Shown here: piece by piece, positions 1 through 38,041 of the stretch
Numbering within the stretch: position 1 is the stretch's first letter
Layout of the letters: every line of letters begins with the position of its first letter
Origin: an uncultured virus (IMG/VR IMGVR_UViG_3300031998_000018)
Taxonomy: Duplodnaviria > Heunggongvirae > Uroviricota > Caudoviricetes
IMG/VR virus record: IMGVR_UViG_3300031998_000018
Length of the DNA stretch: 64,000 bases
Direction: 5' to 3' (one strand)
Position numbers and translations under genes: made by a program
Notes under the pieces: generated by a model
The model's database searches: none
The model's input: the letters and a program-made list of their open reading frames with translations, nothing else
Told to the model about the DNA's origin: nothing

Positions 1-16
1 TTTCTAAAACGATCAT
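1..16 (-). CDS. Start of a gene running off the left edge (MIVLE...)
   Basis: ATG at 16 after a GAGAGG RBS and consensus promoter 45-73, same layout as other array units. Confidence 0.55.
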
Positions 17-130
17 TTTTATTGCCTCTCTTTCTTACGAGTATATTATATCACGATAGACCGATTTTGTCAACGAAAAAATTGTAAACAATTTATGAAC
101 GCGCCCGGGCCTTCGCCCTTGGCGGTCTGC

Positions 131-775
131 TCACCAGAGCAGACCGTCAATTTCGGGGTTTACCGACCGACAGAAGGCGAAAATTTTTGCTTCAATCAGC
201 ACATCTTCAAGTCCTGTGTGGCTCTCGACAAATTCGGTGTTGCCTGTGAGCCACCGATAAATCACCTCGGCAGTGTATCTTGGCGTGCCGTTCTTGCAGA
301 CAAAACCGTTTTTCTCGCAGAAGCCGCGGTAGTTCTCGCTGCCCTTGAGCACTTCGCGCGCCATTTTCAGCGTGTCAAGGATTTTTGTGCCGAAGGGGAA
401 GAAGTAGCGATACTTCGAGGAGGTCAGCAGACGCTGGGTGTAGTTAGTTGACTTGTAGTCAAACCGCGCGTTGTGGGCGACAACGTAGGTTATGCCGTAG
501 CGCGCCATTACATCACGCACCGCCTTGCGGATCGTCGAGTGACGTGCGAGCCTGCGAGTGCCGGCTTTTATGTCAGCCCAATACTGCGGGATTTTGTCGC
601 AAAAGTAGGCGGTTGACATCATCTCTGTATCGAGAAAAATGTCAGCGTTCACAAAGGAAGCCGTTTCGTAGACTTCGCCTTTGCAGTCGACGACGGCGTA
701 GCCGAGGTCGTAGTAAAAGGGGTCTTCGATTGTGTTGGCGGTTTCGGTGTCGAGCATCAGGAACAGTTCTGTCAT
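131..775 (-). CDS. DEDDh 3'-5' exonuclease (DnaQ-like)
   Basis: LDTET, AHNARFD and HTGLED Exo motifs; own promoter and RBS. Confidence 0.85.
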   Translation of the reverse strand: MTELFLMLDTETANTIEDPFYYDLGYAVVDCKGEVYETASFVNADIFLDTEMMSTAYFCDKIPQYWADIKAGTRRLARHSTIRKAVRDVMARYGITYVVAHNARFDYKSTNYTQRLLTSSKYRYFFPFGTKILDTLKMAREVLKGSENYRGFCEKNGFVCKNGTPRYTAEVIYRWLTGNTEFVESHTGLEDVLIEAKIFAFCRSVNPEIDGLLW

Positions 776-957
776 TAGGGGTTACCTCTCTTTCGTTTAC
801 GGCTATATTATACACCTGTTTTAGGAATTTGTCAACACTTTTTTATTCGTCAATTTCAACAAAAATAACTAAAACTTCCGGCTAGATCTTGTGCAAAATG
901 ACGGGCGCCCGGGCCGGCGCCTTTGTGCAAAATGCACAAAGGCTTCCGGCGGTTGGC

Positions 958-1302
958 TCAAAGGACGGCTTCGTAAGCCTTGACCGTCCCCTTGCCCTTG
1001 ACCTTGAGGTCAAGCGCCTTGAGCTTGCCTGCCTCGACAAGCTGCCGGCAGAGAGCCGACACCTTCTGCGTTGACACGCCGCAGGCGGAGGCAATCTCGG
1101 CGGCGGTCAGCGAGCCGACACCGATGGCGGCGACGATAGCGTCCTTGACACCCTCGTTGGCGAGCTGCGCCTTCGAAGGCGTGTTGCGCCTCTTGGCGTT
1201 GCGCGCGTCGAGCTTCTCAAGCTCGCTGGAGGCGAAGGCGACGACCTCGGCATTGTCGGCGAGGCTGGCGGAAACGGTGGACAGGAATTCGCGGTAAGTC
1301 AT
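958..1302 (-). CDS. Winged-helix DNA-binding protein (paralogue of 2834..3178)
   Basis: LTAAEIASACGVSTQKVSALCRQLVEAG HTH followed by a basic wing. Confidence 0.8.
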   Translation of the reverse strand: MTYREFLSTVSASLADNAEVVAFASSELEKLDARNAKRRNTPSKAQLANEGVKDAIVAAIGVGSLTAAEIASACGVSTQKVSALCRQLVEAGKLKALDLKVKGKGTVKAYEAVL

Positions 1303-1539
1303 AGTAGACCTCTTTCTCCCACACTCACGCAGTGGGCGCGTATGTTGGGCGGTTAGCGCCTCGGCGCTTCCTCTCCCCTCTTGACAAGAATATTATATCA
1401 CAGTTTTCAGAAAATGTCAACAACTTTTTCTGGAAAAATTACTTTCGTCGATCTGCACAAAAAGCCGGATCTCGCCGGAACCCAATTTGTGCAAAATGAC
1501 GGGCGCCCGGGCGTGGTTAGCCTCGGCTAACTCGCCCGC

Positions 1540-1569
1540 TAAAAAAGAGAGGGCTTGTGCCCTCCCTCT
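1540..1569 (-). terminator. Rho-independent terminator
   Basis: AGAGGGAGGGCACAAGCCCTCTC then T6, directly after the stop of 1571..1972. Confidence 0.75.
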
Positions 1570-1570
1570 G

Positions 1571-1972
1571 TCAACCGATGCCGTTTGACTTCAAACGGTA
1601 TTCAGTTGACGCCTTGGCTTCGTGTTCCGCCTTGGCTGCTGCCTTGGCTTCCCTCGCCGCCTTGTCGCGCGCTATTTTGCGCGCCTTGGCTTCTGCCGCT
1701 TCCTTCGCCTTTTCGGCTTTTTCGGCGACCTTTGCCTTGTATTCCTCGGCGACGCCGTAAGCGTCATACGGCTCACCGTCGCGTGAGCCAGTCGGCACTT
1801 TGAAGGTCAAGACGATAAACTCGTCGTTTCCCTCTTCGTCGACCACCGGCAGGGCGATCTCGTTGGAGTTGGTGAGCAGGACTTCGTCACCATTGGCGGT
1901 GAGACAGTCGGAGACGATGCGCATATACTGCGCGCGGAGAGCCTCGTGAAGGGCTTTCTTGGACTTGGGCAT
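1571..1972 (-). CDS. Hypothetical protein with Ala/Lys/Glu-rich C-terminal helix
   Basis: 133-aa ORF with own promoter, GGAGG RBS and terminator. Confidence 0.8.
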   Translation of the reverse strand: MPKSKKALHEALRAQYMRIVSDCLTANGDEVLLTNSNEIALPVVDEEGNDEFIVLTFKVPTGSRDGEPYDAYGVAEEYKAKVAEKAEKAKEAAEAKARKIARDKAAREAKAAAKAEHEAKASTEYRLKSNGIG

Positions 1973-2094
1973 TTGGATTACCTCCCTTTCGTTTACGGCT
2001 ATATTCTATCATAAATTATTGATTTTGTCAAGAAAAAAATTGTAAACAATTTGTGAATGGGATCCGGCCGGAATGTGAACTCGGCGCCCGGGCA

Positions 2095-2403
2095 TTAATC
2101 GGTAAATGTAATTGTTGACTATAATGCGAATTTTACTTGCTAGAGTAATTGAAGTGCTTCTGTTAAATATACTTCATCAGAAGGAAAGGTACAAGTTGAA
2201 AGAACGTGAGCAAGATCATTAATAAGATCATCAAGTGGAGTAATGGAATTAAATGGCTAATACTTGCGGCAGACGATGTGTCTATCATCTAGAAAGAGTT
2301 CAAGTGCATCACCCTCACGAATATGGAGTTTTTGTCTGATTTCTTTTGGGATAACAATACGTCCTAAATCATCTGTTTTGCGAACAAAGCCTGTGGTAGT
2401 CAT
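2095..2403 (-). CDS. abrB: AbrB/SpoVT-family transcription regulator (102 aa with TAG=Gln)
   Basis: MTTTGFVRKTDDLGRIVIPKEIRQKLHIREGDALELFLDDRHIVCRKY(Q)P matches the AbrB N-domain; GAGG RBS; 3 in-frame TAG; ends TAA; absent from ORF track. Confidence 0.88.
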
Positions 2404-2462
2404 TACATGTACCTCATATATTAAAATTTAATGGGAATGTGCCCGGGCACCCGTTTCGCCCT

Positions 2463-2675
2463 TTACATCAACAAAAAATGAATGTTGAGTGCCAGTAATG
2501 CCAACCCTGTGACCAATTCATTGACTTTATGGTCATAAAACCACGCACGAAATATCATAATTAGTGCATTAGATATACCAAACCATAGACCAAAATTGCC
2601 AAAAGCAATTACAAGTATGACATTAAGTAAGGTCAGAAAAGCGGATAAGTCGTTCCATTCCCATTTGATTTTCAT
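2463..2675 (-). CDS. Small membrane protein
   Basis: 70 aa, mostly hydrophobic; own promoter 2704-2732. Confidence 0.75.
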   Translation of the reverse strand: MKIKWEWNDLSAFLTLLNVILVIAFGNFGLWFGISNALIMIFRAWFYDHKVNELVTGLALLALNIHFLLM

Positions 2676-2806
2676 CTTAAATTCCCCTTTCTTTTACAAT
2701 TATATTATATCACAATTCTACTATTTTGTCAACACTTTAATTGTTAAAAAATTATGAACAACGTGCCCGGGCGCCGGTTAACCTTGGCTAACCGGCGCCC
2801 AAACAG

Positions 2807-2827
2807 AAAAGGGGATTGCTCCCCTTG
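2807..2827 (-). terminator. Rho-independent terminator
   Basis: AAGGGGA-GCAA-TCCCCTT hairpin with T tail after the stop of 2834..3178. Confidence 0.7.
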
Positions 2828-2833
2828 TCTGTG

Positions 2834-3178
2834 TCACTCCTGAACGGAGTAAGACTTGACGGAACCCTTGCCTTTCACCTTGATGTCGGTGACGGCGATC
2901 GAACCGCTCTCGACCATCTGTCTGCACAGTGCCGAGACTTTCTGCGTGGAGATGCCGAGGGCATTTGCGATCTCGCTCGCAACGGCGTTCTTGGCGTTGA
3001 GCAGGTAGGCGAGGATCTGTCCTTTGACTTCTTCGTTGGCTTTCTGCTCCTTGCTGAGTGTGTTTCTGCGCTTGTCGTTGCGAGCATCGAGTTTCTCGAT
3101 TTCGGCTTTGGCGAAAGCGTTGAGTTCGTCGTTGATGTCGGCGGCGAGGACTGAGTTGAGGAATTCGCGAGTGGTCAT
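2834..3178 (-). CDS. Winged-helix DNA-binding protein (paralogue of 958..1302)
   Basis: Shares MTxREFL, EKLDARNxKRRNT, STQKVSALCRQ and KVKGKG with 958..1302. Confidence 0.8.
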   Translation of the reverse strand: MTTREFLNSVLAADINDELNAFAKAEIEKLDARNDKRRNTLSKEQKANEEVKGQILAYLLNAKNAVASEIANALGISTQKVSALCRQMVESGSIAVTDIKVKGKGSVKSYSVQE

Positions 3179-3238
3179 AGTGTGTATTACCTTTCTGGTT
3201 TAGTCGGTTTTCCTTCCCTTGATTACGAGAATATTATA

Positions 3239-3388
3239 TCACATTTCTGTGAGTTTGTCAAGAGGTTTCTTGAATTTTTTTGAATTTTTTTCGAGTTTCT
3301 CACGTTTGGTCGGAGTCTTGCGCGTGTATGGAATGGGCGGTTTCCGGCGCGCCTTGCGTTCTTCGCGCTCTTTGTTTTTTTGCGTCAT
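3239..3388 (-). CDS. Small basic protein (49 aa)
   Basis: MTQKNKEREERKARRKPPIPYTRK...; GAGGAGG RBS after promoter 3416-3444. Confidence 0.6.
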   Translation of the reverse strand: MTQKNKEREERKARRKPPIPYTRKTPTKREKLEKNSKKFKKPLDKLTEM

Positions 3389-3540
3389 CTCTTGTTCCCT
3401 CCTCTTGACAAGAATATTATATCACAGTTTTGGGAAGAAGTCAACAGTTTTTTCTTCGTCATTTTCAACAAAAATAATCACAATTGAGTCGCCGGTTTTT
3501 GTGCAAAATGCCGGCGCCCGGGCGGACCTCCGCGTGGTCT

Positions 3541-3696
3541 TCAAAGACTCACACGGAGTTCGATTTTTAATTTTCGGCGTGCCTTGCGCCTACACTGCCT
3601 TTTCTGTTTTCCGGCATCTTTCCAATGAACAAGTGAACCGCAATTAAGATCGCGTGCGGTGTATTCTTTTACTGTTGCCTTTTTGAAGTAATCCAT
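3541..3696 (-). CDS. Small basic protein (51 aa)
   Basis: MDYFKKATVK... start after GAGAGG RBS and promoter 3724-3752. Confidence 0.7.
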   Translation of the reverse strand: MDYFKKATVKEYTARDLNCGSLVHWKDAGKQKRQCRRKARRKLKIELRVSL

Positions 3697-3931
3697 TAGT
3701 TTACCTCTCTTTCTTGTGACTACATTATACCACAAGATAAGCAATTTGTCAAGGGGTTTTTTTATTTTTTTTCGAGAAATCTTTATACCTTCTCTCGTGG
3801 AGTCGCGCGCCTCGTAAGTTCCTCGGCTTTTCTCTCCCCTTGACGAGTATATTATATCATAAATCGCTGGAAATGTCAATAGATCAAATTGTAAACATTT
3901 TATGAATGCGCCCGGGCGGCCGGTGCCGTCC

Positions 3932-4135
3932 TCAAAGGACAGCACCGTTTGCTACGACATACTCTCCGTCAATCCACTGCCAGAGAATTTCGCCAGTGAG
4001 ACCGTCAATGACGACCACTTCGTGCGCATCAAGACATTTGATGAACTGCTTGAACATGAGCCACATGTAATCTCTGTCGATTACGCAGTATTCGGACTTG
4101 GCTTCAAAGTGAGTAGAGACGCGGATTTCGAACAT
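3932..4135 (-). CDS. Hypothetical protein (67 aa)
   Basis: Own promoter 4166-4194 and GAGAGG RBS. Confidence 0.75.
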   Translation of the reverse strand: MFEIRVSTHFEAKSEYCVIDRDYMWLMFKQFIKCLDAHEVVVIDGLTGEILWQWIDGEYVVANGAVL

Positions 4136-4248
4136 TGTGTGTACCTCTCTTTCGTTTGCACTTATATTCTATCATATATTAAGTGATTTGTCAACAAGAA
4201 AATTGTAAATAAATTGTGAACAATTAGCGCCCGGGCCTCCTCGCCGCC

Positions 4249-4677
4249 TCAGACGGCGGCGAGAACCTTGAAGATTTTGTCAGGAGTGTAAGCACCCTCA
4301 CCCCATTCGTTGCGATTGTGTTCCTCGTCGTCGAACAGGATACCCTTGCCACAAGTGCTTTTCGGTGTGCCGTAGGCGACGATTTTGATTTCGTCCCAGC
4401 GCACGCTCGGCAGATGCTTCGCCAGCCATTCGCGCTTGACCTTCGCGACCGCTTCGCCGTATTCAGCGGAGCCGCTCTTTGAGAGCCACGAGATGATGCC
4501 GACCTTCGCGCCAGCGCGCTGTGCTTTGTGCAGGGCTTTCGCGAGCCTTGCCATATTGACGAGCGGGCGCGCCTCAGCGTAGGGTGCCGGATCTTCGGCT
4601 ATCAGTTTTGAAAGCCAATCGGCTACTCCGTAGAGATCCGCGATCGTGCCGTCCATATCGAAGAAAATCTGTTTCAT
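4249..4677 (-). CDS. HAD-family phosphatase, 5'(3')-deoxyribonucleotidase-like
   Basis: FFDMDGTIAD motif I and ILFDD motif IV; start reassigned downstream of promoter 4707-4735. Confidence 0.8.
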   Translation of the reverse strand: MKQIFFDMDGTIADLYGVADWLSKLIAEDPAPYAEARPLVNMARLAKALHKAQRAGAKVGIISWLSKSGSAEYGEAVAKVKREWLAKHLPSVRWDEIKIVAYGTPKSTCGKGILFDDEEHNRNEWGEGAYTPDKIFKVLAAV

Positions 4678-4796
4678 TGGTTCATTCCCCTTTCCTTTAC
4701 GGCTATATTCTATCACAAAATCGGCAGTTTGTCAACACTTTTTCGCCCGTGAATTGTAAACAATTTGTGAACTCGGCGCCCGGGCGCTCGCCGGAC

Positions 4797-4988
4797 TTAC
4801 CAAGTCCGACGACCTGTGCGCTGATACTCGCGCGACATTGCTTTATACATTTCGATACGCGCCTTGCGCGCGATTTTTTCGCGTCTGTTGCGCGCAATCG
4901 CGCTCACAACGAGATAACCGATATCGGCGAGAAAAGTCAAACCGACGACAAGACCGAAAAACGCGAGAACGACAATAATAAGTTCCAT
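4797..4988 (-). CDS. Small single-pass membrane protein (63 aa)
   Basis: Hydrophobic N-terminus MELIIVVLAFFGLVVG, basic tail; GAGG RBS; promoter 5022-5050. Confidence 0.7.
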   Translation of the reverse strand: MELIIVVLAFFGLVVGLTFLADIGYLVVSAIARNRREKIARKARIEMYKAMSREYQRTGRRTW

Positions 4989-5106
4989 AAGACAAACCTC
5001 TTTTCTTTTCTTTACAAGAATATTATACCACAATTTTATTAAAAAATCAATAAGAAAATGTAAATAGATTATGAACGGCTGGCGCCCGGGCGCTCGGCGC
5101 GAGGGC

Positions 5107-5514
5107 TCACGCCCTCTCGCCAAACCACTCGAGCATTCTCTTGCTTTCACTCAAAAGTTGGATTTTTTCGTGCCCGCCGTTCTTTTGGCTTTCTCTTGTC
5201 TTGCAACCGAACTCGGCGACAAACTCTGTCCACTCGGCTCTGTCCATTATGTAAGCCGTTCCAAAATCGGCGGTCACATAAGCATACCGATTGGCTCCGT
5301 CGAGGTCGAGGTAAGCCTGAAGGTCATACCCTTTGCAGACCGTTGCTTTCTGGCTCTTGATCTGGATGTCGAGGACGTCACCGCCAAGCGTGTGAGGCTT
5401 GTTGTCGGCTTTGGCGATTTCGCCTGTCAGCGTGAACCGCATCACCTGCTCGGCGTGCTGTCCGTTGTTCTTGTATATGCGCTCGATCGAGTTGTTCAGT
5501 TTGATGGTGGTCAT
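5107..5514 (-). CDS. Hypothetical protein, possible PD-(D/E)xK nuclease fold (paralogue of 5650..6045)
   Basis: GQHAEQ...GGDVLDIQIKS resembles an E...D...QxK motif. Confidence 0.6.
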   Translation of the reverse strand: MTTIKLNNSIERIYKNNGQHAEQVMRFTLTGEIAKADNKPHTLGGDVLDIQIKSQKATVCKGYDLQAYLDLDGANRYAYVTADFGTAYIMDRAEWTEFVAEFGCKTRESQKNGGHEKIQLLSESKRMLEWFGERA

Positions 5515-5649
5515 TGGTGTTACCTCCCTTTCGTCTACGACAATATTATATCATATCCCGAGTAATTTGTCAACACTTTTTTGAAAAATTTTTTATTTTT
5601 TTGAGAGGGCCGATCCTGGATCCGGCCGGGCCGCCCGGGCTGAGAGGGC

Positions 5650-6045
5650 TTAGGCTCTTGCGAGCCAGGCCCTCATTTTGTCGGTCTCGTGGCCGAGGCG
5701 GATCTTGACCGCTCCGCCGTTCTTGGCGCTGTCCCTCGTGGTGGTCCCGAAGGCCTTGACGAAGGCAGTGTACTCGGCTCTGCTCATCGCATAGGCGATG
5801 CCGTCCTCGGTCGCGTAGATGTAGGCGGTGCTGGCGTCCTTGTCGAGGTAGGCGTCGAGGTCGTCGCCCTTGCAGACCGTAGCGCGTGCGCTCTTGATCT
5901 GGTAGTTGAGGCAGTCAGCGCCGAGGTCGTAGCGGAGGTTATCAGCCTTGCTGACTTCGCCCGTAAGGGCGAAGCGGACGGACTGTTCGGCGTTCTGGCC
6001 GTGGTTGCGGTAGTTGTTGAGATATTCGAAACGGAAAGCGGTCAT
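5650..6045 (-). CDS. Hypothetical protein, possible PD-(D/E)xK nuclease fold (paralogue of 5107..5514)
   Basis: GQNAEQ...GADCLNYQIKS, ATVCKG, KNGG shared with neighbour; ATG 6045 after AGAGGAG. Confidence 0.6.
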   Translation of the reverse strand: MTAFRFEYLNNYRNHGQNAEQSVRFALTGEVSKADNLRYDLGADCLNYQIKSARATVCKGDDLDAYLDKDASTAYIYATEDGIAYAMSRAEYTAFVKAFGTTTRDSAKNGGAVKIRLGHETDKMRAWLARA

Positions 6046-6251
6046 CGGAAGCACTCCTCTCTTGTTCTTACGAGAATATTATACCACGGCTCGGGCAATT
6101 TGTCAACACTTTTTTGCAAAAAAGAAAAAAATTTTTTCGCGCCTGGGTGGGTCTAGGGGGTGGGTCAGGGCTCAGCATTTGCCGGCCCGGGGTAGGGTTT
6201 TGGGAAAATCGGAGGCCGAAGGCGCCCGAGGGCCGGGGCCTGGAAAATTAG

Positions 6252-6314
6252 TTCCACGAACTCAATTTTTCATTTCATGAACTCAATTTTTCATTCCACA
6301 AACCAATTTTTTCG
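6252..6314. repeat. Three tandem ~21-bp direct repeats
   Basis: ttccacgaactcaatttttca / tttcatgaactcaatttttca / ttccacaaaccaattttttcg. Confidence 0.8.
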
Positions 6315-6349
6315 TTCCCTCTCCCCATTCCACCTCCCATAACGAAAAT

Positions 6350-6378
6350 TTGATTTTTGGACGAAATTAGTGTATAAT
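6350..6378 (+). promoter_or_regulatory. sigmaA-type promoter heading the plus-strand operon
   Basis: TTGATT-17-TATAAT, then N5-TAGAAAA. Confidence 0.8.
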
Positions 6379-6431
6379 TAAGATAGAAAAATAAGGAGAA
6401 GGTGTGACTATGTACACCCTTAATATACCAT

Positions 6432-7784
6432 ATGCCTACTAACCGACTGCACTTAGATTTCTCCCTTACTTATCGAGACGAGCGCTCCGCTTTTCTCGAT
6501 ATTTATCTGAGACAACCTGAATTTACTTAGCGCCCACCTACACCAGAAGAGTGTGAGACGATGGCTAACTATCTCTTATGGGGAAAAGACCGTCAAACAG
6601 GATTAAACGCCAAACAGGATGGCTCTGTCCAACTTACCTCCAAGCATGGTGACTGGGACTCTGACTCCGATTCTAACTTAGAATCGCTCGACGCCCTCAT
6701 GGAGTCCCCCACCTTCAACGAAGCTTCCCTCATCGATATATCTGCGCCCGCCTACCACGTAAAGAAAGAGGTCTTCTCCCGTGACGAAGCACTGGCGCAA
6801 TGCCCGCCTGAATTCATACCGATGTACCGTGAACTATTCCGTTCGATCGACGAACTCGACCTCATGATCAACTACTACGATCTCTAGCACAACAAACGTA
6901 CCAAACCTCCTCGCGAACAGCTTCTTCGTAAATTCACCGAAGAAGAACAACGCATTTTCCAAGAGAAAGTCACCCATTGGAACCAATTCAAATACCTCAA
7001 ACAACGTCATCAACTTATCGAGCTCCGACGCTAGCAATATACCTTGCGCGACTCCTATACCCCTCAGTCACTTCCCTCGGGCTACCAGCCAATCACAATC
7101 GCGCCTCTCGACGCAGACTGGGACGTAGGTATCGAAGTCCTGCCTCTCGGCATTTTCAGCAAAAATACGGCCGCGCGCCTACTATATCAGGACTTCGACG
7201 CCCTGATCCCGCAGAACTTCAATGAAGAATCTCTCCGTCTTGTCTACAAAATCTTTTGGTAGAAATAGAACTATGTTCCGAGCACCCGCAATCGCTACAT
7301 CGATTTCCGCGAACTCGAACACGTCTATAACATATTTGCGCTTTATTATGAGTTGGACCTCCCAGAGGATAATGAGTCATTTACCGAGTCGAATATCAGC
7401 GGTTTAATGAATGCACTAAAGTATTATGTACGTATGGCTGATCTCAGTGAAGCCTAGCGCGAGATTCTTGACATGAAATTAGAGAAGAAGAAAAATAGCG
7501 ATATTGCTTATGACATAAATAAGAAATATGGCAAGGCATATACTGCTAATTATATCTCGACTATCTTTAGACAGAGGATTATACCGAAAATCAATGAAGC
7601 CGCGGAGTATCACGTAAAGATCATCGAGAATTTGTGTTTTCCAGAAGAGTTCAAGACGTGCTCTTGTTGTGGGAAGACCTTACTGCGTGACCCGATTAAC
7701 TTCACACGGAAAACACGTAGTAAAGATGGATTCACTGCTCGGTGCAAGAAATGCGAGAAGCTAGCGAGATCAAAAGGAGATTAA
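6432..7784 (+). CDS. Putative transcription factor with sigma70 region-4-like HTH and C-terminal Zn ribbon (450 aa, 6 TAG=Gln)
   Basis: Fragments 6561, 7044, 7473 share one frame broken only by TAG; LSEA(Q)REILDMK...SDIA HTH; CSCC...CKKC. Confidence 0.65.
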
Positions 7785-9082: not shown

Positions 9083-10892
9083 TACTAGAAAGAATAAAAT
9101 ACTTACATAGCGCCGGACCGTGTTTGATAGTGATATGCTCGATCACGGATATCGCGACGGTATCGAAATAGAAAAGGGAGTCGTCCTCAATGAAGACTAC
9201 CTCGAAAAACATTATGAAGAGATTGGCAATATGCTGTCAATCTTTTCTGCATATCCAGACATTTTTCTTGATTTTATTACCCCTGCTGAATCCAATTTTG
9301 AATTATTTTTCTATCAAAGAATCACACTGCGCGCGATCATGCGTTATCGCGGTGTGTATATAACGGCGCCTCGTGCGTTCTCGAAGTCATTCATCACGAT
9401 CTTGGGGTTAATGCTTCAATGCATTTTTATTCCTGGCACCAAACGATTTATCTGCGCTCCTAACAAAAATCAGTCGGCGCAGATTGCGAAAGAAAAGATC
9501 GTTGAGATCTACGACCGTTGGCCGCTAATTCGTAAAGAAGTTATCGGGGGTGATATTTCGGATACGCCCGGTAATTTCGGTAAAGACTACGTCACCCTTA
9601 AGTTTCGTAATGGTTCACAGTTTGACGTTGTCGGCGCCCTTGACTCCCAACGTGGTGGTCGTAGGCATGGCGGCCTAATCGACGAGGTTCGTGACCATGA
9701 AGAAGAGCCAATCAACGAAATCGTTCTCCCTCTTATGAACGTTTCGCGCCGACTACCCGACAACACCGTTAACCCTAACGAACCTAACCAAGAAAGAATC
9801 TTCATGACATCTGCTGGCGTCAAGACTTCTTTCGCTTATGACCTACTGCTCGACATATTCGAAGACTCTATTATCCATCCCGAAGATTCTTTCTGTATGG
9901 GATGCGATTACAGAGTGCCGCTGATGCATGGACTGCTTGACCGCACCTACATCAATAAACTAAAGACCTCTCCTTCCTACTCCGAAGAAGCTTTCGCGCG
10001 CGAATATCTCTCTATCTGGTCCGGTTCTTCTGATGAGTCTTGGTATAACTTCGACAAGCTGTAGAAGTATAGAAAAATCAAGAATCCCGAAACGCACGCA
10101 AAATTTAGAGAGAGCGACTCATGTTTTTACTTATTATCAGTAGACGTAGGACGTATTCATGACCAAACGGTCGTGTGTGTCTATCGTGTCAATATTGACA
10201 AATCAGGTAAGCATTTTGTTACTCTTGTGAATTTAATCGTGCTAGCGCGCGAGGCTGCGACAAAGACATTTGTCTAGCAAGCGATTGACATCAAACGCTT
10301 AATTCGCGACTTCCATCCGCGCGAGGTTGTCATTGATACAAACGGTTTAGGTATAGGCCTGGCCGACGAGATGATTAAACCTCATTATGATGATTTAGGT
10401 GAGTTTTATCCGGCATATGCTTTTAAGAATGATGAAACCTATTACGCCATTCAACCTAAAGATGCGCCGAAGATTCTATATAGCCTTAAAGCTAATGGAC
10501 CTCTCAAATCCAAGATACATGGTAATGCTTATGCAAAGCTAAGTAGTGGAACAGTGCGCTTCCTTATCAAAGAACAAGAAGCTAAAACTGCGCTGATGGC
10601 CACTAAAACTGGTCAAAAAATGTCAGTATATAAACGAGTAGAACGTCTTATGCCGCATGAGATGACAACTAAATTATTTGAAGAAATGGCTAATTTGCGG
10701 CTAAAACGAACCGGGGTATCGACAGATATTGTTCTCGAACAAATCAATACCCGCTACCCAGACGATAAATATTCGTCATTCGTTTACGGACTCTGGCGCA
10801 TCAAAGAGATGGAAGAAGAGTATACTCAAAAACGTCGAAGACGTTTCGGAGCGACCGGAGATCACAAACGTTAGTTAGTCTTTTATAATTAA
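9075..10892 (+). CDS. terL: Terminase large subunit (605 aa, 4 TAG=Gln)
   Basis: APRAFSKS Walker A-like, GLIDE Walker B, SVDVG and VIDTNGLG nuclease motifs in one frame joined through TAGs. Confidence 0.92.
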
Positions 10893-20341: not shown

Positions 20342-23300
20342 ATGGCAAAGGAATTTACTTATAAGTTAAATATTGATGCTGAAACCAATGCATTAACTAA
20401 TAAACTGAAGAGTATTAGTACTTTATTAGCAAATTTAGGACAGTCTGGACAAGAGCCTCAAATTCAAAAAATACTCACGCAAGTTACTGCTAAATTAGAT
20501 GATCTTAAATTAAAAGCAAGTACTCCTATTAGAACTGCTAGCGCTTTTGCGCCAATGGAAAAGGATGTCGCTAAACTTAATTAGTTATTTGCCACCTTAG
20601 GGACTGAAATTAGTAAAGTCGCATCTCAAGATGGTTTAAAGAAACTATCTATTTTGCCGCCAGATGCAGTAAAAAGAGTTACTAATGCCGCTAAAGGATT
20701 TGAAGCTTATGACGCCGCAGTTAAGCGTGCCAATGAAAATTCCAAAGAATATAATAATACTCTAAAGATCTTAAATGAGCGCCAAGAAGCTTTAAAATCA
20801 AATTAGATTTAGATTGCGGGATTACAGGATGCACAAGGTGACAATCTCAAAAAACGTGCATAGTTAGAACAAGAAATTGCTACTGCAAGAGCAAATAATG
20901 ATTAGGAGACACTGCAGAGGGCTTAGCAAGAATTAAAGTCTTTAGAAAGTATTTATAATAGACAATAGAGTAGTATTGATCAATTAACTGCATCATAGAC
21001 ACGTTTAAAGACTTAGTTAGAAGAAGCCCAAAACGCTTTTAAGAAAGCAGAAAAGGCTTAGGATGCGAGCAAAACATAGCAGTTAACAGTAGCTTTTTAG
21101 TAGTTAATTATTGCCATGCGTGATGCAGGCATTGCATTTGATGGTTTACGAACTAATGCCGACGGCACTTTATCTCGTACTGCAGGTAATATTGCTGAAT
21201 TACGAGCACGTGTTGAAGAATTAACTAAAACCGTAACAATTGAAGCAGATGCGGCTTATAGTAAAATAATCACTGAGACTAACGCTACAGCTGATGCTAC
21301 TAATAATGTAACTGCAGCTTTACAACGTGAAACCGTTGCATTTCAAGAATAGAATGAGGCCGCTAGTGAAGTTGATGGCTTAGTAAGCCGTATTAAATAG
21401 TTTACTGGTTTAACTGGTGCTGCGTTTATGATGCGTCGTGCATTACAGAGCGCTCTTAATACAATTAAAGAGCTCGATGCATAGATGACTGAAATGGCTG
21501 TTGTTACAGATCTCGGTATTGGAGATTATTGGAAACAACTTACTGCGCATACAGAACGTGCTAATGCGCTTGGTATGGCCATTAAAGACGTCTATGAAGC
21601 AGAAACACTTTATTACTAGCAAGGTTTAAAAGCTGCTGAAGTTACTGCATTATCTACTTCGACCTTAAAAATGGCTCGTATTGCAGGACTTAGCGCAGAA
21701 GATGCTACTAATAAAATGACTGCGGCACTTCGTGGTTTTAATATGGAAATTAATGAAACAAATGGTGACCGCATTGCTGATGTTTATTCTAAACTTGCGG
21801 CTATTACGGCATCGGATGTTGAAGAAATTTCTACTGCTATGACTAAGACTGCATCAATCGCTTCGAGTGCAGGTATGGAGTTTGAAACTACTGCGGCTTT
21901 CTTATCACAGATTATTGAAACAACACGTGAGTCTGCAGAGACTGCTGGTACCGCTTTAAAGACCGTTATAGCCCGTTTCCAAGAATTAAAGAAATCACCC
22001 GATGAAATTGGCGAAGTTGATGGTGAGATTATTGATGCTAATAAAATTGAAACTGCTTTAAGAACGGTTGGCGTCGCTCTTCGTGATACTAGTGGTCAGT
22101 TCCGTGCATTAGACGATGTCTTTCTTGACCTTGCAGCTAAGTGGGATTCACTTGACATGAATACATAGCGTTATATTGCTACTATTGCTGCTGGTTCTAG
22201 ATAGCAATCACGTTTTGTTGCTATGATGAGTGATTATGCTCGTACATAGGAGTTAGTGAGTGCTGCTAATACTGCAGCTGGCGCTAGTAACGAATAGTTT
22301 GCAAAGACTTTAGATTCATTATAGAGTAAACTCGCTGCATTAAAGAATGCTTGGGATACATTTACTATGGGTTTAGCTAATAATGAATTTATTAAAGCTG
22401 CTGTTGATGCTTTGACTAAAATGCTTAATTTATTAAATCAAATTACAAAAGGCTTTGGTCCATGGAGTAGCAGTGCTTTAAAAATTGGATTAGTAACTAG
22501 TGCCTTAATTGCTGGAAATAAAGCTTTAAAAATCTTTATGGCTACAATGCGTTCATCTAATGCTAGTTTAACTACTTTTCAAAAGACAGGACGCGGATTA
22601 AAAGCTATATTTGCTTCATGGCGACAAAGTTTTTAGACTTTACGTAAATTTATTTTTGGAAAACAAGACGTAGAAGCTATATTACAGTATCGAAATGCTG
22701 TATAGGCTACAGCTGATGCAACAGCTAAAGCCGAAGCAGCAAGTGCAAAAGCTAATAGTACTATTATAGCTGGAACGAGTGCAGCGACTACTTACCAAAA
22801 AGAGGCTGAGCTTGCTACAAAAGGAGTGACGATAGCTAAAGAACAGGAAACTATAGCTGAAGAGAAGTTAGTTGCTGCATTTAGTTTGGATACTGCTCAA
22901 TAGGCAATTTATAATCAATTACGTGAAAAAGGCCTTGAGGCTGATGCTGCAGCGACTATAGCTAAATTAGGTTTAACTGAAGCGGAGTGGGCTAAATTAC
23001 CAGCAGATACAAAGAATCTTTTAATGCAAGAAGCTTTGAATAAATCTACTTTAAAAGGCACTATAGCCACTTTAGGATTACGTGCTGCGATTTTGTTAGA
23101 AAAAATTGGTTTAGGTGGCTTATTAGGCGTAAAATCTACTAGTATTGCATTAACTAAAGCATAGACTACTGCTAATTATAGCTTATGGGCTTCATTGTGG
23201 CCAATTTTAGTCATTATGTTAGCTATTGGCGCAGCAGTTGCTGCTATTTGGGGTGTAGTAAAAATATTTTAGGCACTCAAAGCAGAATCTCCAGCTGGGC

Positions 23301-26300
23301 AGTTAGATGCAGTAACTAAAGCGTTAGCAGAAACAACAACACGCGCAGAAGATGCTAAAGAAGCTTATAATGATTTAAAAGATACATTAACTTCTTTAGA
23401 TGATTAGTATAAAGCTATAGAAGATTTAACACAGGGCACCCGTGAATGGCAAGAGGCTTTATTGTCTGTTAATGCTACAGTTTTAGCTTTACTTGATAAA
23501 TATCCATAGTTAGCTCAATATGTAACATCTACTAATGGTATTTTACAATTAAGTGAGAAGGGTACGGATGCATTATTACAAACATAGCTTGAATCCATGC
23601 AAGGAGCCTAGGCGGCAGTAGCCGTTATGTAGCAACAAAAAAATGCCGCAGTAGCTAATTATCGTTATTCATAGTTGTCTGATAAGGCTACTGCAAGTCG
23701 AGAAGGGTTAACTACTGCACTTGGTGCAACAGCAGGTACTCTTATAGGAAATATCCCTTTCTTAAATATTGGAATAGGCCTTGCTTAGTTATATTCATAG
23801 AAAGGAAGCGCAAAAGGGTGGCGCGATTGGGCGCTTTCTGTTTTTGCAGGTCCAATTTTGGGTGCTGGTGTAGGTATTTCAGCAGGATTAGAGGGGCATG
23901 AGGCTTCTCGTGAAAAAGGCCGCGATATAACTAGTAGATTTGCTCAAGAATTGGCAGCAGGTAAATTTAGTAATGAAGAGGAGATACGTGCATGGCTGAA
24001 AGAGCAAGGCATGTCTCGTTCTAGTATTACTAATTGGATTAAACAGATTGGTGATATTAGTGGTAAATCTGCACAAGAATTAGCCGAGTATGGACAAGAG
24101 TTGCTTAAATTAGAGGCTGCAAATAAAGCATATTCTCAAAGTATTATTAATAATGCTATAGGGATGCTATCTAATGGACATTATACTAATGAAGAATTAT
24201 AGTAGATGCAGAATATTGGCACCAATTTAATGGATAAAATTATAGAAGAAATGAATACTTCTATTGGTTCCAAAAATCTTAAGAAAGATTTAGATTATTT
24301 ATCATATTGGGAAGCTATTTATGGACAAGGCGAAGTTGAAATCACTAGGAAGGGTGCAGTTAAAGTTCGTAATGATGAAGGCAAATTTGTTGAAAAAGTA
24401 AATGCTGATGTTGCCAAAACAGAATACGCTGCCGCTGAAGCTGCCAAAGAGATGGCTAAACGTTTACAAGAATTACCAGCAGCACTAGATCAAGTAAGTA
24501 GTAGTTTACGTGGTGTTAAACAAAATGCTAGTGAAGCAGAAACAGCCTTGAAACATGCCTTTGGTAATGATTAGGGCATGGATTTGGTTCGTGAAGATTT
24601 AAAGCTTTTAACAGAATCTTATCGTGATGCAATGTGGGAGAATAATGCAGAACTAAGAGCGATTTATGGTGATTCTGAAGAAGGTTATGCATTATTTGTT
24701 GCGGATATTACTGAACGTCGTAAATTAGCGAATTAGGCCTTTAGAGATAATGCGACAGCTTTGCGGCAAATGGGATTAAAAGGTTTCCAATTTGATTCTA
24801 GTTTAACTGCCGGAGCCGAAAAGGGGTTAGTAGAACATTTAGCTTAGGTTGCTGCAATATCTGGTGCTGAGAGCGCCCGAGCATACGGAGACAAATTAAA
24901 TACACTATTAGATTCTGTTACAGAAAAAGAGCGGAATGCTTTAGTCTCTTAGTTAAATGCTATTAACTGGCATGATGCAGATGCTTTAGAGAAGCTTCCA
25001 GGCATTTTGCATGAACTATAGATTAACATACCAAATGATACATTAAATGAATTTATTGACGATACCAAGGAAGCAGCCCAAGCTTTACATAATGTTGACT
25101 TTAGTGCATTAAATGAATAGTTAACTGATTTAAATCGTTTACTTTATGACATTGCTACTAATACTTAGGGGCGTATTTTTGAAGAAGATACTTATGAGCA
25201 ATTAATTAAGTTAGCACCTGAATTAGCTAGTAACTTTACTAAAAATAAAGAAGGTAAATATATTTTTCAGGGTGGTGAATTATCAGACATTAAGGCAGCA
25301 ACAGCTTATACTGAAGACCGTATCCTCGAAGGAATGTCTACTATTCAAGGGTAGATTAATGCTGCTAAGATATTAGATGACATTATTGGTAATGGCGAAT
25401 CGCATTTTGAGTCCTCAACTTGGTTAGGTAAATTATTAGGTGCTGAAGGTAATCTTAAGGCGTTTAATAGATCCGATAAGTGGACTTCAGAGGAATAGAA
25501 GAGCTTTATACAAGAATTCTTGGATGTGGCTAATGCTTCGAATTTATCTATTTAGGGTGTTTCTGACCATTTAAGTAATAATACAACAGTAGATACTCTA
25601 ACGGATGATGTAATTAAGACTATAATAGAAGACTTAAAGAACTATTTTGGATAGAGCCAAACACTTAAAGAACAATTCCCTGAAGCCATCATGGCTGCTG
25701 TTACTGATTCTTTAAAAGATAACCCATATTTTAATAGTTATACTAATGATTTAATGCAATCTATGGAAACACGCTATACAGATGCTACAGATTTAGAGAT
25801 TGCTTAGTACAGAATACGTCGTGCTTCAACCATTGGTTAGGCAATTGATATTGGAATCGCTGAAACTGATTCGCGCGCGGTATTACAGTTAAATCAACGA
25901 TTAATTGAATTAGAAAATGCTGGTCAAACTGGTACTGAACAATATCGTGCATATGCAAAAGTTATGAATGAGTTTATGCGTACTTTAGGTGGAAAGTCTT
26001 CGTTTTAGACTATGTATCAAGGTATGCAAGAAAACGTGAAAGCTACTGCAGAGTTATTAGAAACATATTAGAAAACCACAGATGAACAAGAGAAGATGTA
26101 TTTAGTATCTCAAATGATGCGTGAATTTGATATTCAGACTACTGAAGAAAATTATGAAAAAATTGCAGGTTATACTGAAGCATATTTATCAGGTGAGGAA
26201 TAGGGGTTTAAGAATATTGCTAATATGGCTGGAGTTGCTGCAGGCATTATATATGAGGGTGAAGAATAGTTATATGACTTTATGAATTATAAGCTCTTTG

Positions 26301-28435
26301 ATTCTATGAATGCAACTATGCAAAAATTTGCCACGGCCATGTTGGATGCACGTTACGCTTATATTAATGCTGAAGGTGAATTTATTTGGGGCTGGAATGT
26401 GCTTAATGATTTAGCTGAAGAGGCTTATGATCGTGCGAAAGCATGGGAGAACCCTTATGATTGGCTATGGAATGCTAATTAGCGCGTTAATGCCACTTTA
26501 CGCGAACGCAACGATTTAGAGCGTGCATATTAGTTAATGCTTGAAGACAATGGGTCGACTGTTGATAAAATTGCTAAAAATTTATCTGATCAAGTAACTT
26601 TACTTCAGAAACAGGCTAGCTATGAAAAAGGTATTTATGATAGCGCAAAAGATGAATTAACTCGTATGCTTTCTAAAGATGAGCTTGGTAAAATAGGTTT
26701 ACCGCCAGAATTATATAGCTTAATTCAAGGTAATATTGCTATCGGGTCATATGGATAGGTTACAGTTAATAAAGATGCTTTATATGCGGCAGGATATACT
26801 AATGAAGTTGGTGATGTAATTGGTACCATCATTGACAAAGTAGACTCTTTATCAGATACCATGGCTTCTGCTTATGAAACCAATCAGGAAATTGAAGATA
26901 GATTGCGCGAAATTCAAAAAACTGGTAAAGAGCAATATGATAGCTTAGTTGATCGTGTTACTGAGGCCTTGCGTTAGTAGTATTAGCGTCAAATAGATAC
27001 CTTAAATGACGTTCATGATGCCATTACTGATGCTGCTAATAGTTTGGTTGATAAATTACAAGAAAAAATTGATGATGATCGTGCAGCGCGTGAAGATGCT
27101 AAAAAGATTGAATCTTTATAGGATAAATAGGCGGCTATTGCGTATCTTCAGGCTAGTGGTGGTAGTGCATTAGAGATTATTTAGGCACAAAAAGCATTAG
27201 AGGATGAAACTGAAGCATATCAAGATAGCTTAGTTGATAAGTCTATTCAAGAGATGTCCCGTGCAAATGAGTAGGCAGCAGATCAGCGGCAAGAGTAGAT
27301 TGATATTGCTTAGGCTCAATTTGATTGGTGGTCTGAAAATGATGCCATACATGATGCCGAGACCGCGGTAAATGATTCATTAGAAAAAATAGCTAGTGGT
27401 TTAGCTCCAGATTAGACGGGTATTGCCACTTTATTAGCAGAAGAAGAAAAAGTTAAAACTAAAACTTAGGAAGGTATTACTGATTGGTATAAGAGTTTAA
27501 ATGCTGATTCTAATTTAGCTGCGATTCATACTGGTTTAGTTGGCGACACTAATTCAGTTAATGCCACTATTAGCGGTTTATCTCAGGCTTTAGATAGCGC
27601 TTTAACAAATGAGCAATCGGGTATTATAGCATTAAATCAAGCAATGAAAGAAGATTTGCACAAGTTACATGTTAATACTGGTAATGCTTTAACTGATGAT
27701 AATCATTTTAAAATTACTAATACAGAATTTTAGGGGAAAGTAGATGCATTAGTAACCGCATTAAATGCTATTGCTCAAAAGTATGTAGGTGCAGATTTTG
27801 CTGAAGGTCAAAAGGTTGGTGAAGATCGTGGAAACGGCACAACTAACGGCGGTATTGATAAACTAGAGCCATAGATTAGTATAGCAGAAGCCTAGGATAG
27901 AGGTATATATTTAGAAGAAGGTAGCTTAATAAGTGCTGGCGAAACTTCTAAGGAGCTATATGTAGATTCATCTACATTAGCAAAACGGCTGTATGTAGGT
28001 GATGATGATTATTATTACGAAGCTGCAAAGAATGTATTTTATAAATATGCAGATATGATTTGGGATCCAATTTATGGCTTATATCGTATTCCAGCAGATA
28101 CCGCTTAGTGGAGCATACCCCGTTTTGCTACTGGTGGTCTTGCGGACTTTGCTGGTCCTGCTTGGCTTGATGGTACTGCTTCTGCTCCAGAGTTGGTTCT
28201 TAATGCCACAGATACTGCTAATTTCATTACCCTCAAAGATATTCTTGCCGAAATTATGCGCGGTACCCAAGATCGTTCTAATTCCGACATCGGCAATAAC
28301 TACTACAACATCGACGTCCACGTCGAATCTATTGATTCTGATTACGACGTTGATCAGGCGGCCGAGCGCATTAAAGAACTTATCGAAGCCGACGCCATGT
28401 ATCGTAATGTAACCGCAGTTCCACAAACTCGTTAA
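20342..28435 (+). CDS. Tape measure protein (~2697 aa, many TAG=Gln)
   Basis: ORF fragments 20342, 21116, 21671, 22367, 23858, 24206, 26282, 26537, 28193 share one frame; YY(Q)QG, TRESAETAGTALKT, AGSR(Q)QSRF and C-terminal FATGG motifs; frame spot-checked, not read codon by codon. Confidence 0.85.
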
Positions 28436-36307: not shown

Positions 36308-38041
36308 ATGTCTGATGGATTATCTGCTGCTGATGTCATGGCGATGACGAAAGAAAGTGATGGTATGAATGCTATCTGGAATAACCCTGAACAAATTTAT
36401 TAATTTCTTAAATTTTTCCAAATTTATATATACACAGTTATATAATTCTACTTATATATAGAACAAAGATAAAGGAGAATAATTATGACTGGTATTTATA
36501 AAATTACTTGTTTAGTAAATCATAAAATCTATATTGGATAGAGCGTCCGTTTACAAAATCGTTTAAGTGCCCATCAACGTGAATTAAAACAAGGCATTCA
36601 TTTTAATGTAGAATTGCAAAAAGACTTTAATTTATATGGCGTGGATAATTTTACTTTTGAAATTATTGAATAGTGTCCCGCCACTAAATTAGATGACCGT
36701 GAACGATTTTATATTAAATTATTAAATGCACAAGATACAAAATATGGATATAATTTAACCGAGGGCGGATGTGAATATCGCGGTACGAACAACCCAATGT
36801 ATGGAAAAAGTGGTAAATTATCACCAAGATTTATAGATATAATTTATCAATTAGATACTTCGGGCGCGGTACTAGCAGAATTTGAAAGTGCCAATTTAGC
36901 GGCGAAAGCTGTTAATGGATAGGCAGGGCATATTAATGATTGTTTACAGACTTGGAAACAACATTCTGCTTCTCCAGTTGGCGCATCACATCCAGAACGA
37001 CTCACGCATAAAGGCTACCAATGGATATTTAAAAAGGATTATGAAATACTAAAGCAAAATGGTTATGATTTTAGTAAAAAACGTACTAAAAAATCATTGA
37101 CCATCCAAGATTTAATAGATAAAGGGGCCTTAAGTAGCAATACTTAAGTGGTACTTTGTGAACTGCTGGAAACTCTCTTTGGAGATAATCAGCAACTAAG
37201 CCTATATAATAGGAAAGCTCAACGACTATCCTGATACTACAAATCCAGAAAAAGAAAAAGAGTAGTTAAGCTATGAAATTTAGCAATAGGAGTACGGCCC
37301 AAGAGGGTGGGTGAAAATCCCTTAAATGGAAGCGCAAAGCATCTCAATGAGATGAAGATATAGTCTGATCTTTATGGCAACATAAAGAGGAATAATGGAT
37401 TCGATTATTCCGCAACATTAATGTTTATCTACTTTGTTTGGATGGCACTGTTTAGTGGAGGATTTGGCGGCCTCTTTGGAGGTAATAACGCCGCTACTTA
37501 GGGTGCCCTTACTCGTGCAGAACTTTATGATGGGCTTGGACGCCAAGATTTATTTGCCAATCAAGAAGCTATTCAATCTGAACTAAGCTCTTTTGAACGC
37601 GATGCCGCCAACAAATGGGGCGACATTCGTTACGACAACTTACAGAATATTTACGGATTACAGAGTGCCATGACTGGTGGTTTCTATACCGTTAATAGTA
37701 ACCTTAAAGATGGCCAGTTTGCCCAACAGCAGGGCGCGTGCTCTATTAATCGTAATATTGACGATGTCAAGGCTGAAGCATATAAGAACACTTGTGAGAT
37801 TACTACTGCTATTCACGCTGAGGGTGAAGCGACTCGTGCTCTTATTACTGAAAACACAATTCAGGCACTTCGCGATAAGCTTGAAGATAAAGATCGTGAA
37901 TTACTCGCGGCTAATTTCCAGATTTCGCAAGGTGCGCAGAATGCTTACCTTATTGATGCAATTAGACCCGTGGCTCGTCCCGCTTATATTACTGCTAGTC
38001 CCTATACTAGCAATATGTGCGGTTGCGGTTGTAACCTGTAA
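36308..38041 (+). CDS. Intron-split membrane/coiled-coil protein (exons 36308-36388 and 37424-38041; 232 aa)
   Basis: Splicing gives ...AIWNNP|FIYFVWMALFSGGFGG...AT(Q)GALTRAEL..., in frame with ORF 37670; ends CGCGCNL. Confidence 0.85.
36389..37423 (+). ncRNA. Group I self-splicing intron (IA-like)
   Basis: 5' exon ends in U, intron ends in G; IGS TAGATAAAGGGG 37116-37127; P3 CTTTGTG/CGCAAAG; P4 TGCTG/CAGCA; P7 GACTA 37224 / AAGATA-TAGTC 37361; P8 and P9 hairpins. Confidence 0.92.
36485..37147 (+). CDS. Intron-encoded GIY-YIG homing endonuclease (220 aa, 3 TAG=Gln)
   Basis: MTGIYKITCLVNHKIYIG(Q)S; GYNLTEGG; NPMYGK (NUMOD3-like); C-terminal NUMOD1-like segment. Confidence 0.92.

Follow-up and report, generated by a model that had tools for sequence, protein, structure and literature searches.

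An octamer palindrome as a possible seam for the exchange of promoter-gene units in the early region of gut phages

Promoter-early stem-loop (PeSL) cassettes are a feature of T4-type phages, described in two papers (Arbiol et al. 2010, PMC2839356; Comeau et al. 2014, PMC4122927). The subject here is an 8-base-pair (bp) palindrome, GCCCGGGC, referred to as the octamer, in the uncultured virus record IMGVR_UViG_3300031998_000018. A stretch of 64,000 nucleotides (nt) of this record was analyzed (the window), and the octamer lies in a row of small genes at positions 1-6110 (the array). PeSL cassettes are the closest known kind of arrangement, with a sharper, sequence-defined joint in the present array. 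The explanation favored, at a rough probability of 0.55, is that the octamer is a seam at which units are exchanged between related phages through general recombination, and that recognition by a dimeric protein keeps it in place.

Integrons contain attC sites of 57-141 bp, which are imperfect inverted repeats that fold as single strands, together with IntI and promoterless cassettes that share one common promoter. The host-takeover module of the Bacillus phage SPO1 groups some two dozen small early genes into many short operons under strong sigma-A promoters, after which phage sigma factors take over; we know of no conserved palindromic boundary element, and of no cassette exchange at such a site, in SPO1. 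HIP1 (GCGATCGC) of cyanobacteria is an 8-bp GC-rich palindrome with many exact copies kept by selection and no established mechanism. To our knowledge, the turnover of early regions is understood in molecular detail only for T4-type phages. No description of the GCCCGGGC motif was found in the literature searched on the octamer with phage, PeSL, SPO1 host takeover, and recoded rumen phages, with subscription journals outside the coverage.

The window contains 12 exact copies of GCCCGGGC, all within 103-5640, where 0.29 (standard deviation 0.50) would be expected per 64 kilobases (kb). None of 100 dinucleotide-preserving shuffles reached 12 or more copies, and an exact count finds none in the other 58 kb. 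Array genes were called on the minus strand by reading frame and ribosome-binding site, and all 12 copies are intergenic among 13 small minus-strand genes transcribed from about 6045 to 131. The array extends beyond position 1: a fourteenth gene, with its promoter at 73-45 and its ATG at 15, runs off the window. An earlier note on this DNA had described 12 perfect intergenic copies with none elsewhere in the window, and an array that continues past position 1; the exact count, the gene calls, and the terminal promoter with its ATG bear out both statements. The copies, in transcription order, are as follows.

5633..5640, copy 1: 3' of the gene at 5650-6045
5084..5091, copy 2: 3' of the gene at 5107-5514
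4778..4785, copy 3: 3' of the gene at 4797-4988; one side of a contig joint (4785 to 3525) in run X9
4229..4236, copy 4: 3' of the HAD/NT5C gene
3910..3917, copy 5: 3' of the gene at 3932-4135
3516..3523, copy 6: 3' of the gene at 3541-3696; other side of the X9 joint (3525)
2765..2772, copy 7: border at which a GC-rich cassette meets an AT-rich one; in front of it are a terminator-like hairpin whose tail is T-rich (2826-2809) and an inverted repeat GTTAG-N6-TTAAC (2777-2792)
2441..2448, copy 8: the sole copy that no promoter follows; next come a ribosome-binding site and the AbrB-like gene
2086..2093, copy 9: one base past the TAA at which the AbrB-like frame stops if TAG is decoded as an amino acid
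1505..1512, copy 10: preceded by a hairpin with T6 (about 1569-1541) and an inverted repeat GTTAG-N6-CTAAC (1516-1531)
907..914, copy 11: 3' of the gene at 958-1302
103..110, copy 12: 3' of the exonuclease gene; next promoter at 73-45

Promoters accompany these copies closely. A consensus scan identified 27 promoter-like sites, compared with 5.4 +/- 1.7 in shuffles. Fourteen sites on the minus strand of the array match 10-12 of 12 consensus positions with a 17-nt spacer, and nine of these are a perfect TTGACA-17-TATAAT. A promoter stands about 30-90 nt behind 11 of the 12 octamers, the exception being 2441-2448, which is followed by a ribosome-binding site only; three of the 14 promoters have no octamer before them, namely 6106 at the array head, 3752, and 3261. 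Conserved A/T-rich upstream motifs of two kinds lie between octamer and -35 element. The promoters, given from the start of the -35 element to the end of the -10 element, are listed below.

45..6106, minus strand, 14 sigma-A-type promoters from the consensus scan, first part: 6106-6078, 5573-5545, 5050-5022, 4735-4707, 4194-4166, 3879-3851, 3752-3724
45..6106, minus strand, same scan, remainder: 3444-3416, 3261-3233, 2732-2704, 2031-2003, 1420-1392, 835-807, 73-45

The unit that the earlier note called typical (GCCCGGGC, upstream motif, TTGACA-17-TATAAT, ribosome-binding site, small gene) has its promoter behind 11 of the 12 octamers, and the note's description of the units as self-contained promoter-gene cassettes is supported. 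The sharp contrast in composition that it reported, with AT-rich units among GC-rich ones, is equally clear when measured gene by gene. The genes at 2463-2675 and 2257-2403 have a GC content of 0.35 and 0.40 (0.38 and 0.33 at third codon positions, GC3), whereas their neighbors range from 0.55 to 0.64 (GC3 0.71-0.83), and GC3 jumps at cassette borders through 0.75, 0.38, 0.33, and 0.71.

The same layout of variable hairpin, octamer, and promoter recurs in related phages. An early search pattern, the octamer plus TTTACAAT, gave mostly single matches and was replaced for IMG/VR by a stricter octamer-plus-promoter pattern, which occurs in more than 207 IMG/VR stretches among the matches listed, many with 4-12 matches each. 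Records of the matching phages are 60-240 kb in length, and several are TAG-recoded. Confinement is shared as well: in a complete, terminally repeated genome of 181 kb (G003), all 18 octamers lie at 91.9-108.2 kb, and in a second record (G002), all 16 lie within 8.5 kb, compared with 0-1 occurrences of a reversed control motif. Thirty-six of 44 further whole records carry the octamer, in up to 51 copies. A role in terminal redundancy or DNA entry was rejected, as the array of G003, a genome with direct terminal repeats, is located at 92-108 kb of 181 kb.

Conservation of the octamer is strict. Inside five array spans there are 58 exact copies and 5 with one mismatch, which points to selection on every octamer position. 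Across 342 non-identical oriented octamer units, the flanks are almost uninformative save for a non-A at -1 and a non-T at +8, which extend the site to a 10-bp palindrome, Y-GCCCGGGC-R. At the 3' site of the exonuclease gene, studied in 80 loci selected only by homology to that gene, 74 loci reach 120 nt past the stop; 21 of them carry an exact octamer, 19 a one-mismatch copy, and 34 none.

Gene content is shuffled around these sites. The same families, including the exonuclease, HAD, winged-helix, and AbrB-like genes among others, differ in order and copy number among five arrays, and within genomes a repeated intergenic module starts exactly at the octamer. Homology breakpoints were compared between related, non-identical contigs (megablast, at least 85% identity, alignments of at least 300 nt), with alignment ends at locus ends dropped and repeated contexts counted once. 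In the first set, 24 of 161 endpoints inside arrays fall no more than 5 nt from an octamer (2.0% for random positions) and 26 fall in a promoter (7.5% random). A second set, whose loci were chosen by protein homology and not by motif, gave 18 of 153 at the octamer (2.2% random) and 24 of 153 in promoters (7.3% random).

There are also clean individual cases. Relative to L139, locus L161 carries a 947-bp insertion flanked by GCCCGGGT and GCCCGGGC, with otherwise dissimilar borders. A single 843-nt unit is common to loci L135 and L209 (94.3% identity); it runs exactly from octamer to octamer, and the DNA outside is unrelated on both sides. The window's own relatives, contigs of runs X8 and X9 compared at 88% likeness, include an X9 contig that joins 4785, the last base of an octamer, to 3525, two bases past another octamer, and an X8 contig whose match breaks off at 5642, 2 nt away from an octamer. 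The earlier note had proposed that cassettes are gained, lost, and duplicated at GCCCGGGC and had suggested setting breakpoints among relatives against the octamer; the endpoint excess in both sets, the differences in order and copy number, the 947-bp insertion, the 843-nt unit, and the X9 joint support this part of its interpretation. Assemblers work with words longer than 8 bp, so the octamer joints are not assembly chimeras, and an assembly artefact was rejected for them. The promoter repeats of about 40 nt might cause such chimeras, which affects the promoter class of endpoints and not the octamer class.

Exchange at an octamer seam is an interpretation that rests on anatomy, octamer conservation, confinement, shuffled order, and the concentration of breakpoints at the octamer and, less sharply, at promoters. 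Each unit is made up of a host sigma-A-type consensus promoter that has an A/T-rich motif upstream, a ribosome-binding site, a small gene or a pair of them, and a hairpin at the 3' end; the 10-bp palindrome separates this hairpin from the promoter module of the following unit. With a strong early promoter and a 3' hairpin in every unit, any recombinant joined at a border would be viable and expressed. Exchange would take place during mixed infection by means of the phage's Sak4-like annealing protein, RecJ-like exonuclease, and RuvC-like resolvase, and general recombination genes of these types are present in the window (58386-59366, 52793-54568, and 38832-39569, respectively). Since a site of 8-10 bp is very short for recombination and every position is conserved, a dimeric DNA-binding or DNA-cutting protein is expected to recognize the palindrome and to keep it invariant.

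Several observations weigh against this interpretation. The shortness of the site for homologous recombination means that a further factor is needed. Most endpoints lie elsewhere (111 of 161 and 111 of 153), many of them plain divergence inside genes; nor are the endpoints counted independent events, as one event can recur in several related contigs and local alignments tend to snap onto a shared octamer within a few bases. There are whole relatives with the same promoter-cassette layout but no octamer, which makes the octamer an add-on of certain lineages and not a requirement of the layout. The window itself is represented by one joint and one unambiguous break only: two further X8 breaks are ambiguous (2775 or 3413; 5078 or 4110), with indistinguishable ends of reverse-oriented contigs. 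The closest relatives compared by protein reach only 64% and 63% identity to the window.

Other lineages have possible counterparts of the joint. Record G039, the IMG/VR record behind locus L423, has no GCCCGGGC; it contains 12 copies of a palindrome with swapped halves, CGGGCCCG, and all but one of them, 11 copies, lie within 26 kb (92.7-118.5 kb). L423 holds four CGGGCCCG copies versus 0.44 expected; two stand at a boundary beside GTTAG-N6-CTAAC, and one of these has a 3' hairpin and a promoter. CGGGCCCG is possibly a lineage-specific variant of the joint. In another lineage, a long palindrome centered on TTCCCGGGAA replaces the octamer after the exonuclease gene (L376, about 7540-7600 and about 10490-10510). 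Promoters face outward on both sides of the octamer at 5 of 542 sites (loci L130-L209, G008/G036 arrays), and some arrays mix both unit orientations, a mixing that a palindromic joint would permit. In the window, a GC-rich stretch with one-mismatch octamer variants (6185, 6232) lies between the array head and a divergent gene for a sigma-factor-like protein, and 6240-6300 on the minus strand contains two direct repeats of a GAAATGAAAAATTGAGTTC-like sequence with one mismatch.

The genes of the array, with lengths in amino acids (aa), are as follows.

5650..6045, minus strand: first array gene, 131 aa, of an unnamed family with a predicted PD-(D/E)XK-like fold
5107..5514, minus strand: paralogue of the first gene, 135 aa, 53% identity to it
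4797..4988, minus strand: 63-aa protein with a hydrophobic N-terminus, no family match
4249..4677, minus strand: HAD-type 5'(3')-deoxyribonucleotidase-like, 142 aa (PF06941, E 1.9e-6; phrog_2643, E 8e-11)
3932..4135, minus strand: 67-aa gene, no family match
3541..3696, minus strand: gene for a 51-aa basic protein, with a relative in G003
3239..3388, minus strand: 49-aa basic open reading frame that overlaps the next promoter, coding status uncertain; relatives in G002 and G005
2834..3178, minus strand: winged-helix (MarR-like), 114 aa, with sub-threshold MarR_2/HTH_24 matches
2463..2675, minus strand: gene for a 70-aa membrane-like protein in an AT-rich cassette (GC 0.35)
2095..2403, minus strand: AbrB/MazE-like gene, 48 aa in the standard code and 102 aa with three TAG codons read (PF04014, E 1.3e-11)
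1571..1972, minus strand: 133-aa gene, with a relative in G004
958..1302, minus strand: second winged-helix gene, 61% identity to 2834-3178
131..775, minus strand: DnaQ-like exonuclease, 214 aa, the most widely shared array gene among the relatives (phrog_20187, E 3.6e-36)

At E <= 0.01, six of the 13 are matched by neither of two family libraries. Two families occur twice, as had been noted earlier, in the first gene with its paralogue and in the two winged-helix genes. The AbrB/MazE-like gene is recoded inside an otherwise standard-code early array: its alignment to a relative extends 20 residues beyond the first of the three in-frame TAG codons, and the read-through frame runs on to a TAA that lies one base ahead of the octamer at 2093. 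Several array genes have a GC content of 0.53-0.64 within a phage of about 0.36-0.45 GC (1-6110 versus 6111-64000), and this suggests that the GC-rich cassettes were acquired from phages of higher-GC hosts.

Two long transcribed leaders, at 1303-1390 and 3753-3850 on the minus strand, are G/A-rich and start with GTCAAG(A/G)GG(A/G)GAG directly after the -10 element. What follows the leader at 3850-3753 is a second promoter, not a gene, and similar leaders are found in related loci. The leaders are possibly a small RNA or a regulatory leader. An Rfam scan of 1-6600 left them unmatched and returned one sub-threshold match only (naRNA4, 24 bits versus a gathering score of 59.5).

The octamer could instead be primarily a regulatory site, with a dimeric phage or host protein bound at each boundary as an insulator, roadblock, or early shut-off, and junctions would then fall there as the sole boundary sequence shared. 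This is a possibility that is judged unlikely, yet it survives best among the alternatives. A strict palindrome with unconserved flanks and exact copies far in excess of one-mismatch copies is typical of a protein site. A companion inverted repeat, GTTAG-N6-CTAAC, accompanies 58 of the 342 units at two fixed places on either side of the octamer; its start falls in the -20 bin in 36 cases and in the +10 bin in 23. In the window it stands at 1516-1531, and a version with a single base altered stands at 2777-2792. The arrangement is symmetric on DNA and does not depend on the direction of transcription, which points to recognition of double-stranded DNA and not of RNA. G002 likewise has two octamers 8 nt apart at the end of its array, with no promoter after them. 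The spacing between octamer and -35 element, however, ranges over 10-98 nt, unusual for an operator, and regulation alone leaves the 843-nt unit that runs from octamer to octamer unexplained. Regulation and exchange are compatible with one another.

The candidate binders considered for such a role have been dropped. A ParB/Noc-type reader was rejected because PF02195 is found in none of 5 records, although a host-encoded protein is conceivable; the Noc site has a CCCGGG core. A methyltransferase encoded in the window is absent from the complete G003, and the winged-helix cassette proteins also occur in octamer-free relatives, which led to the rejection of both.

A dedicated site-specific system, in which a recombinase or nuclease acts on GCCCGGGC in an integron-like or cut-and-rejoin manner, is improbable. 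It would account for an invariant site and for junctions that fall exactly at 8 bp with no other shared flank. The statement in the earlier note that no recombinase is visible holds for the 39 window proteins, where a search confined to the window found neither a tyrosine nor a serine recombinase. The same is true of five records, the complete G003 and four partial ones: tyrosine recombinase PF00589 is found in 0 of 5, with a control that matched in 14 of 14 known genomes, and serine recombinase PF00239 in 0 of 5. Promoters are also junction hot spots, which fits general recombination. The likeness to an integron drawn in the earlier note does not stand, given that no recombinase was found, the 8-10-bp palindrome is not an attC site, each cassette has its own promoter, promoters form a second hot spot, and some relatives are octamer-free.

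Part of the case for a dedicated system concerns the protein at the array head (5650-6045) and its paralogue (5107-5514). This family, with its predicted PD-(D/E)XK-like fold, heads many arrays, with no octamer upstream of it in 12 of 20 loci. Its full-length form occurs in 21 of 36 octamer-bearing and 0 of 8 octamer-free records, counts that ignore relatedness. Against this, the complete genome G031 has 30 octamers and no head-family match, G003, G017, G035, and G036 have weak partial matches only, to a related family that is also present in octamer-poor loci. The predicted structure of the head protein has a pLDDT of 92.5, and its 13 best structural neighbors (VIA all-against-all) are all PD-(D/E)XK nucleases, including NhoI, HhaI, I-Ssp6803I, HinP1I, PvuII, MspI, and Hjc, at modest Z scores of 3.4-5.8 that lie below the tool's reliable level. 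A language-model search of the ESM Atlas placed 6 of 30 neighbors in PDDEXK_16 clusters. Foldseek against the PDB returned nothing at E <= 0.001, no Pfam match was significant, a profile search of PDB sequences gave one match at E 0.2, and tblastn against GenBank phages gave none. Residues D44 and K51 are invariant in the family, but the position two before K51 holds Q or S in place of D or E.

On these predictions, the head family serves as a lead to the octamer reader and not as a finding, and the protein may simply be a conserved early nuclease. It is highly improbable that a dedicated, integrase-free system is at work, in which the modeled PD-(D/E)XK-type head protein would recognize or cut the palindrome, and cassettes of co-infecting phages would be rejoined at their identical ends. 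If true, lytic phages would possess a restriction-like counterpart of the integron that is driven by a nuclease, and the CGGGCCCG lineage (G039) would carry a reader of changed specificity.

An octamer that acts only in RNA, as a terminator part, a processing site, or a stabilizing stem at the 3' end of early transcripts, has very little probability. Predicted hairpins end no more than 7 nt upstream of the octamer in 274 of the 342 units, and the 55 nt upstream have a mean folding energy of -15.2 kcal/mol compared with -8.9 when shuffled. The hairpin over the exonuclease-gene stop keeps its pairing through differing sequences across the relatives; behind it, octamer-free lineages have a T-tract (TTTT, then the promoter), and octamer-bearing lineages have a few bases and then the octamer. 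Against the RNA explanation, no T-tract follows the octamer, two window units have a separate hairpin-plus-T terminator of canonical form upstream of it (2826-2809 and about 1569-1541), terminator-like sites are not enriched in the window (12 versus 8.6 +/- 2.6 in shuffles), an RNA signal needs no perfect palindrome, the companion repeat lies on either side of the octamer, and octamers flank an AT-rich cassette without a hairpin. A motif serving only as a terminator stem, the refuting alternative of the earlier note, is unlikely, given the missing T-tract and the two separate terminators.

The phage that carries the array is probably a lytic siphophage from the cattle gut, with 1-6110 as its early region, which probably serves host takeover. 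The window was matched at 99% of sampled words in two runs of one bovine gut metagenome sample. It encodes a terminase, a portal protein, a Pol III alpha-type polymerase, a DnaB-like helicase, a primase, a topoisomerase II, and NrdD, and the sigma-factor-like gene divergent from the array is found at 6432-7784. A free-standing GIY-YIG homing-endonuclease-like gene (36485-37147, plus strand) lies among tail and lysis-region genes.

As judged from its reading frames, the phage reads TAG as a residue in late and structural genes. A 2697-aa tape-measure protein opens with 72 in-frame TAG codons and a 1781-aa tail protein with 26 (20342-28435 and 29692-35037, for example, within a range of 6432-47479), whereas replication genes and most array genes have none. 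No tRNA, and hence no suppressor tRNA, was found in the 64-kb window.

The nearest record, G001, contains 0 octamers, and its match ends at window position 6985, before the array. GenBank phage records contain no near match to the window, and a distant search gave only two short matches, one of 134 nt (70%) to phAss-1 and one of 67 nt to a record that lacks annotation. The sole named relative is phAss-1, a distant human-gut phage of genetic code 15 that has two octamers in 136 kb. Its authors predict Clostridia as its hosts, and the words "promoter" and "palindrom" have 0 occurrences in the accessible text of their paper (PMC10607447). The hosts of the present phages are probably Clostridia.

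Early and host-takeover regions contain the fastest-changing genes of phages, including those for anti-defense and host control. If exchange at the octamer is the correct explanation, a large group of gut and rumen phages shares a sharp, sequence-specific seam for the exchange of single genes. The octamer gives a simple rule for cutting arrays into exchangeable units, and these units would let gene flow be traced between phages of hosts that differ in base composition (GC3 of 0.33-0.83 in one array). The question raised is what reads an invariant 8-bp palindrome. Should a dedicated nuclease or binder be found, it would define a new kind of cassette system and provide ready-made strong-promoter cassettes for Clostridia.

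Among known systems, the integron resembles the array in its co-oriented single-gene cassettes, its repeated recombination-associated site, and a content that varies between relatives. The array differs from it in having an exact 8-bp palindrome, no tyrosine recombinase found, and an own promoter for 11 of 12 units. The SPO1 module is similar in its small early genes with sigma-A promoters, and the window also has its sigma-factor-like gene; the SPO1 module, however, is located in the terminal redundancy, whereas the array of the complete relative G003 is mid-genome. HIP1 is distributed genome-wide, including inside genes, while GCCCGGGC is confined to one array and to unit boundaries only.

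The likeness to PeSL cassettes goes further. In T4-type phages, the motif repeated between genes unites a stem-loop with a strong early promoter of host type and the AT-rich stretch upstream; its copies cluster in a plastic region whose genes are small and mostly of unknown function, and they bound insertions, deletions, and replacements between related phages, with an own promoter and terminator for each unit. The host phages of PeSL are T4-like myoviruses, whereas the array belongs to a TAG-recoded siphophage whose hosts are probably Clostridia. PeSL mini-circles have been shown by experiment (PMC2839356, PMC4122927), while the array was studied in assembled contigs. The PeSL stem-loop, as described there, overlaps the promoter or lies within it; the hairpin of the array lies outside the promoter, at the 3' end of the upstream gene, and mostly lacks a T-tract. 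PeSL consists of about 100 bp of loosely conserved sequence, with recombination proposed in its AT-rich part (PMC2839356, PMC4122927). In the array, by contrast, the joint is an invariant GC palindrome of 8-10 bp upstream of the promoter, and the breakpoint peak falls on the palindrome itself.

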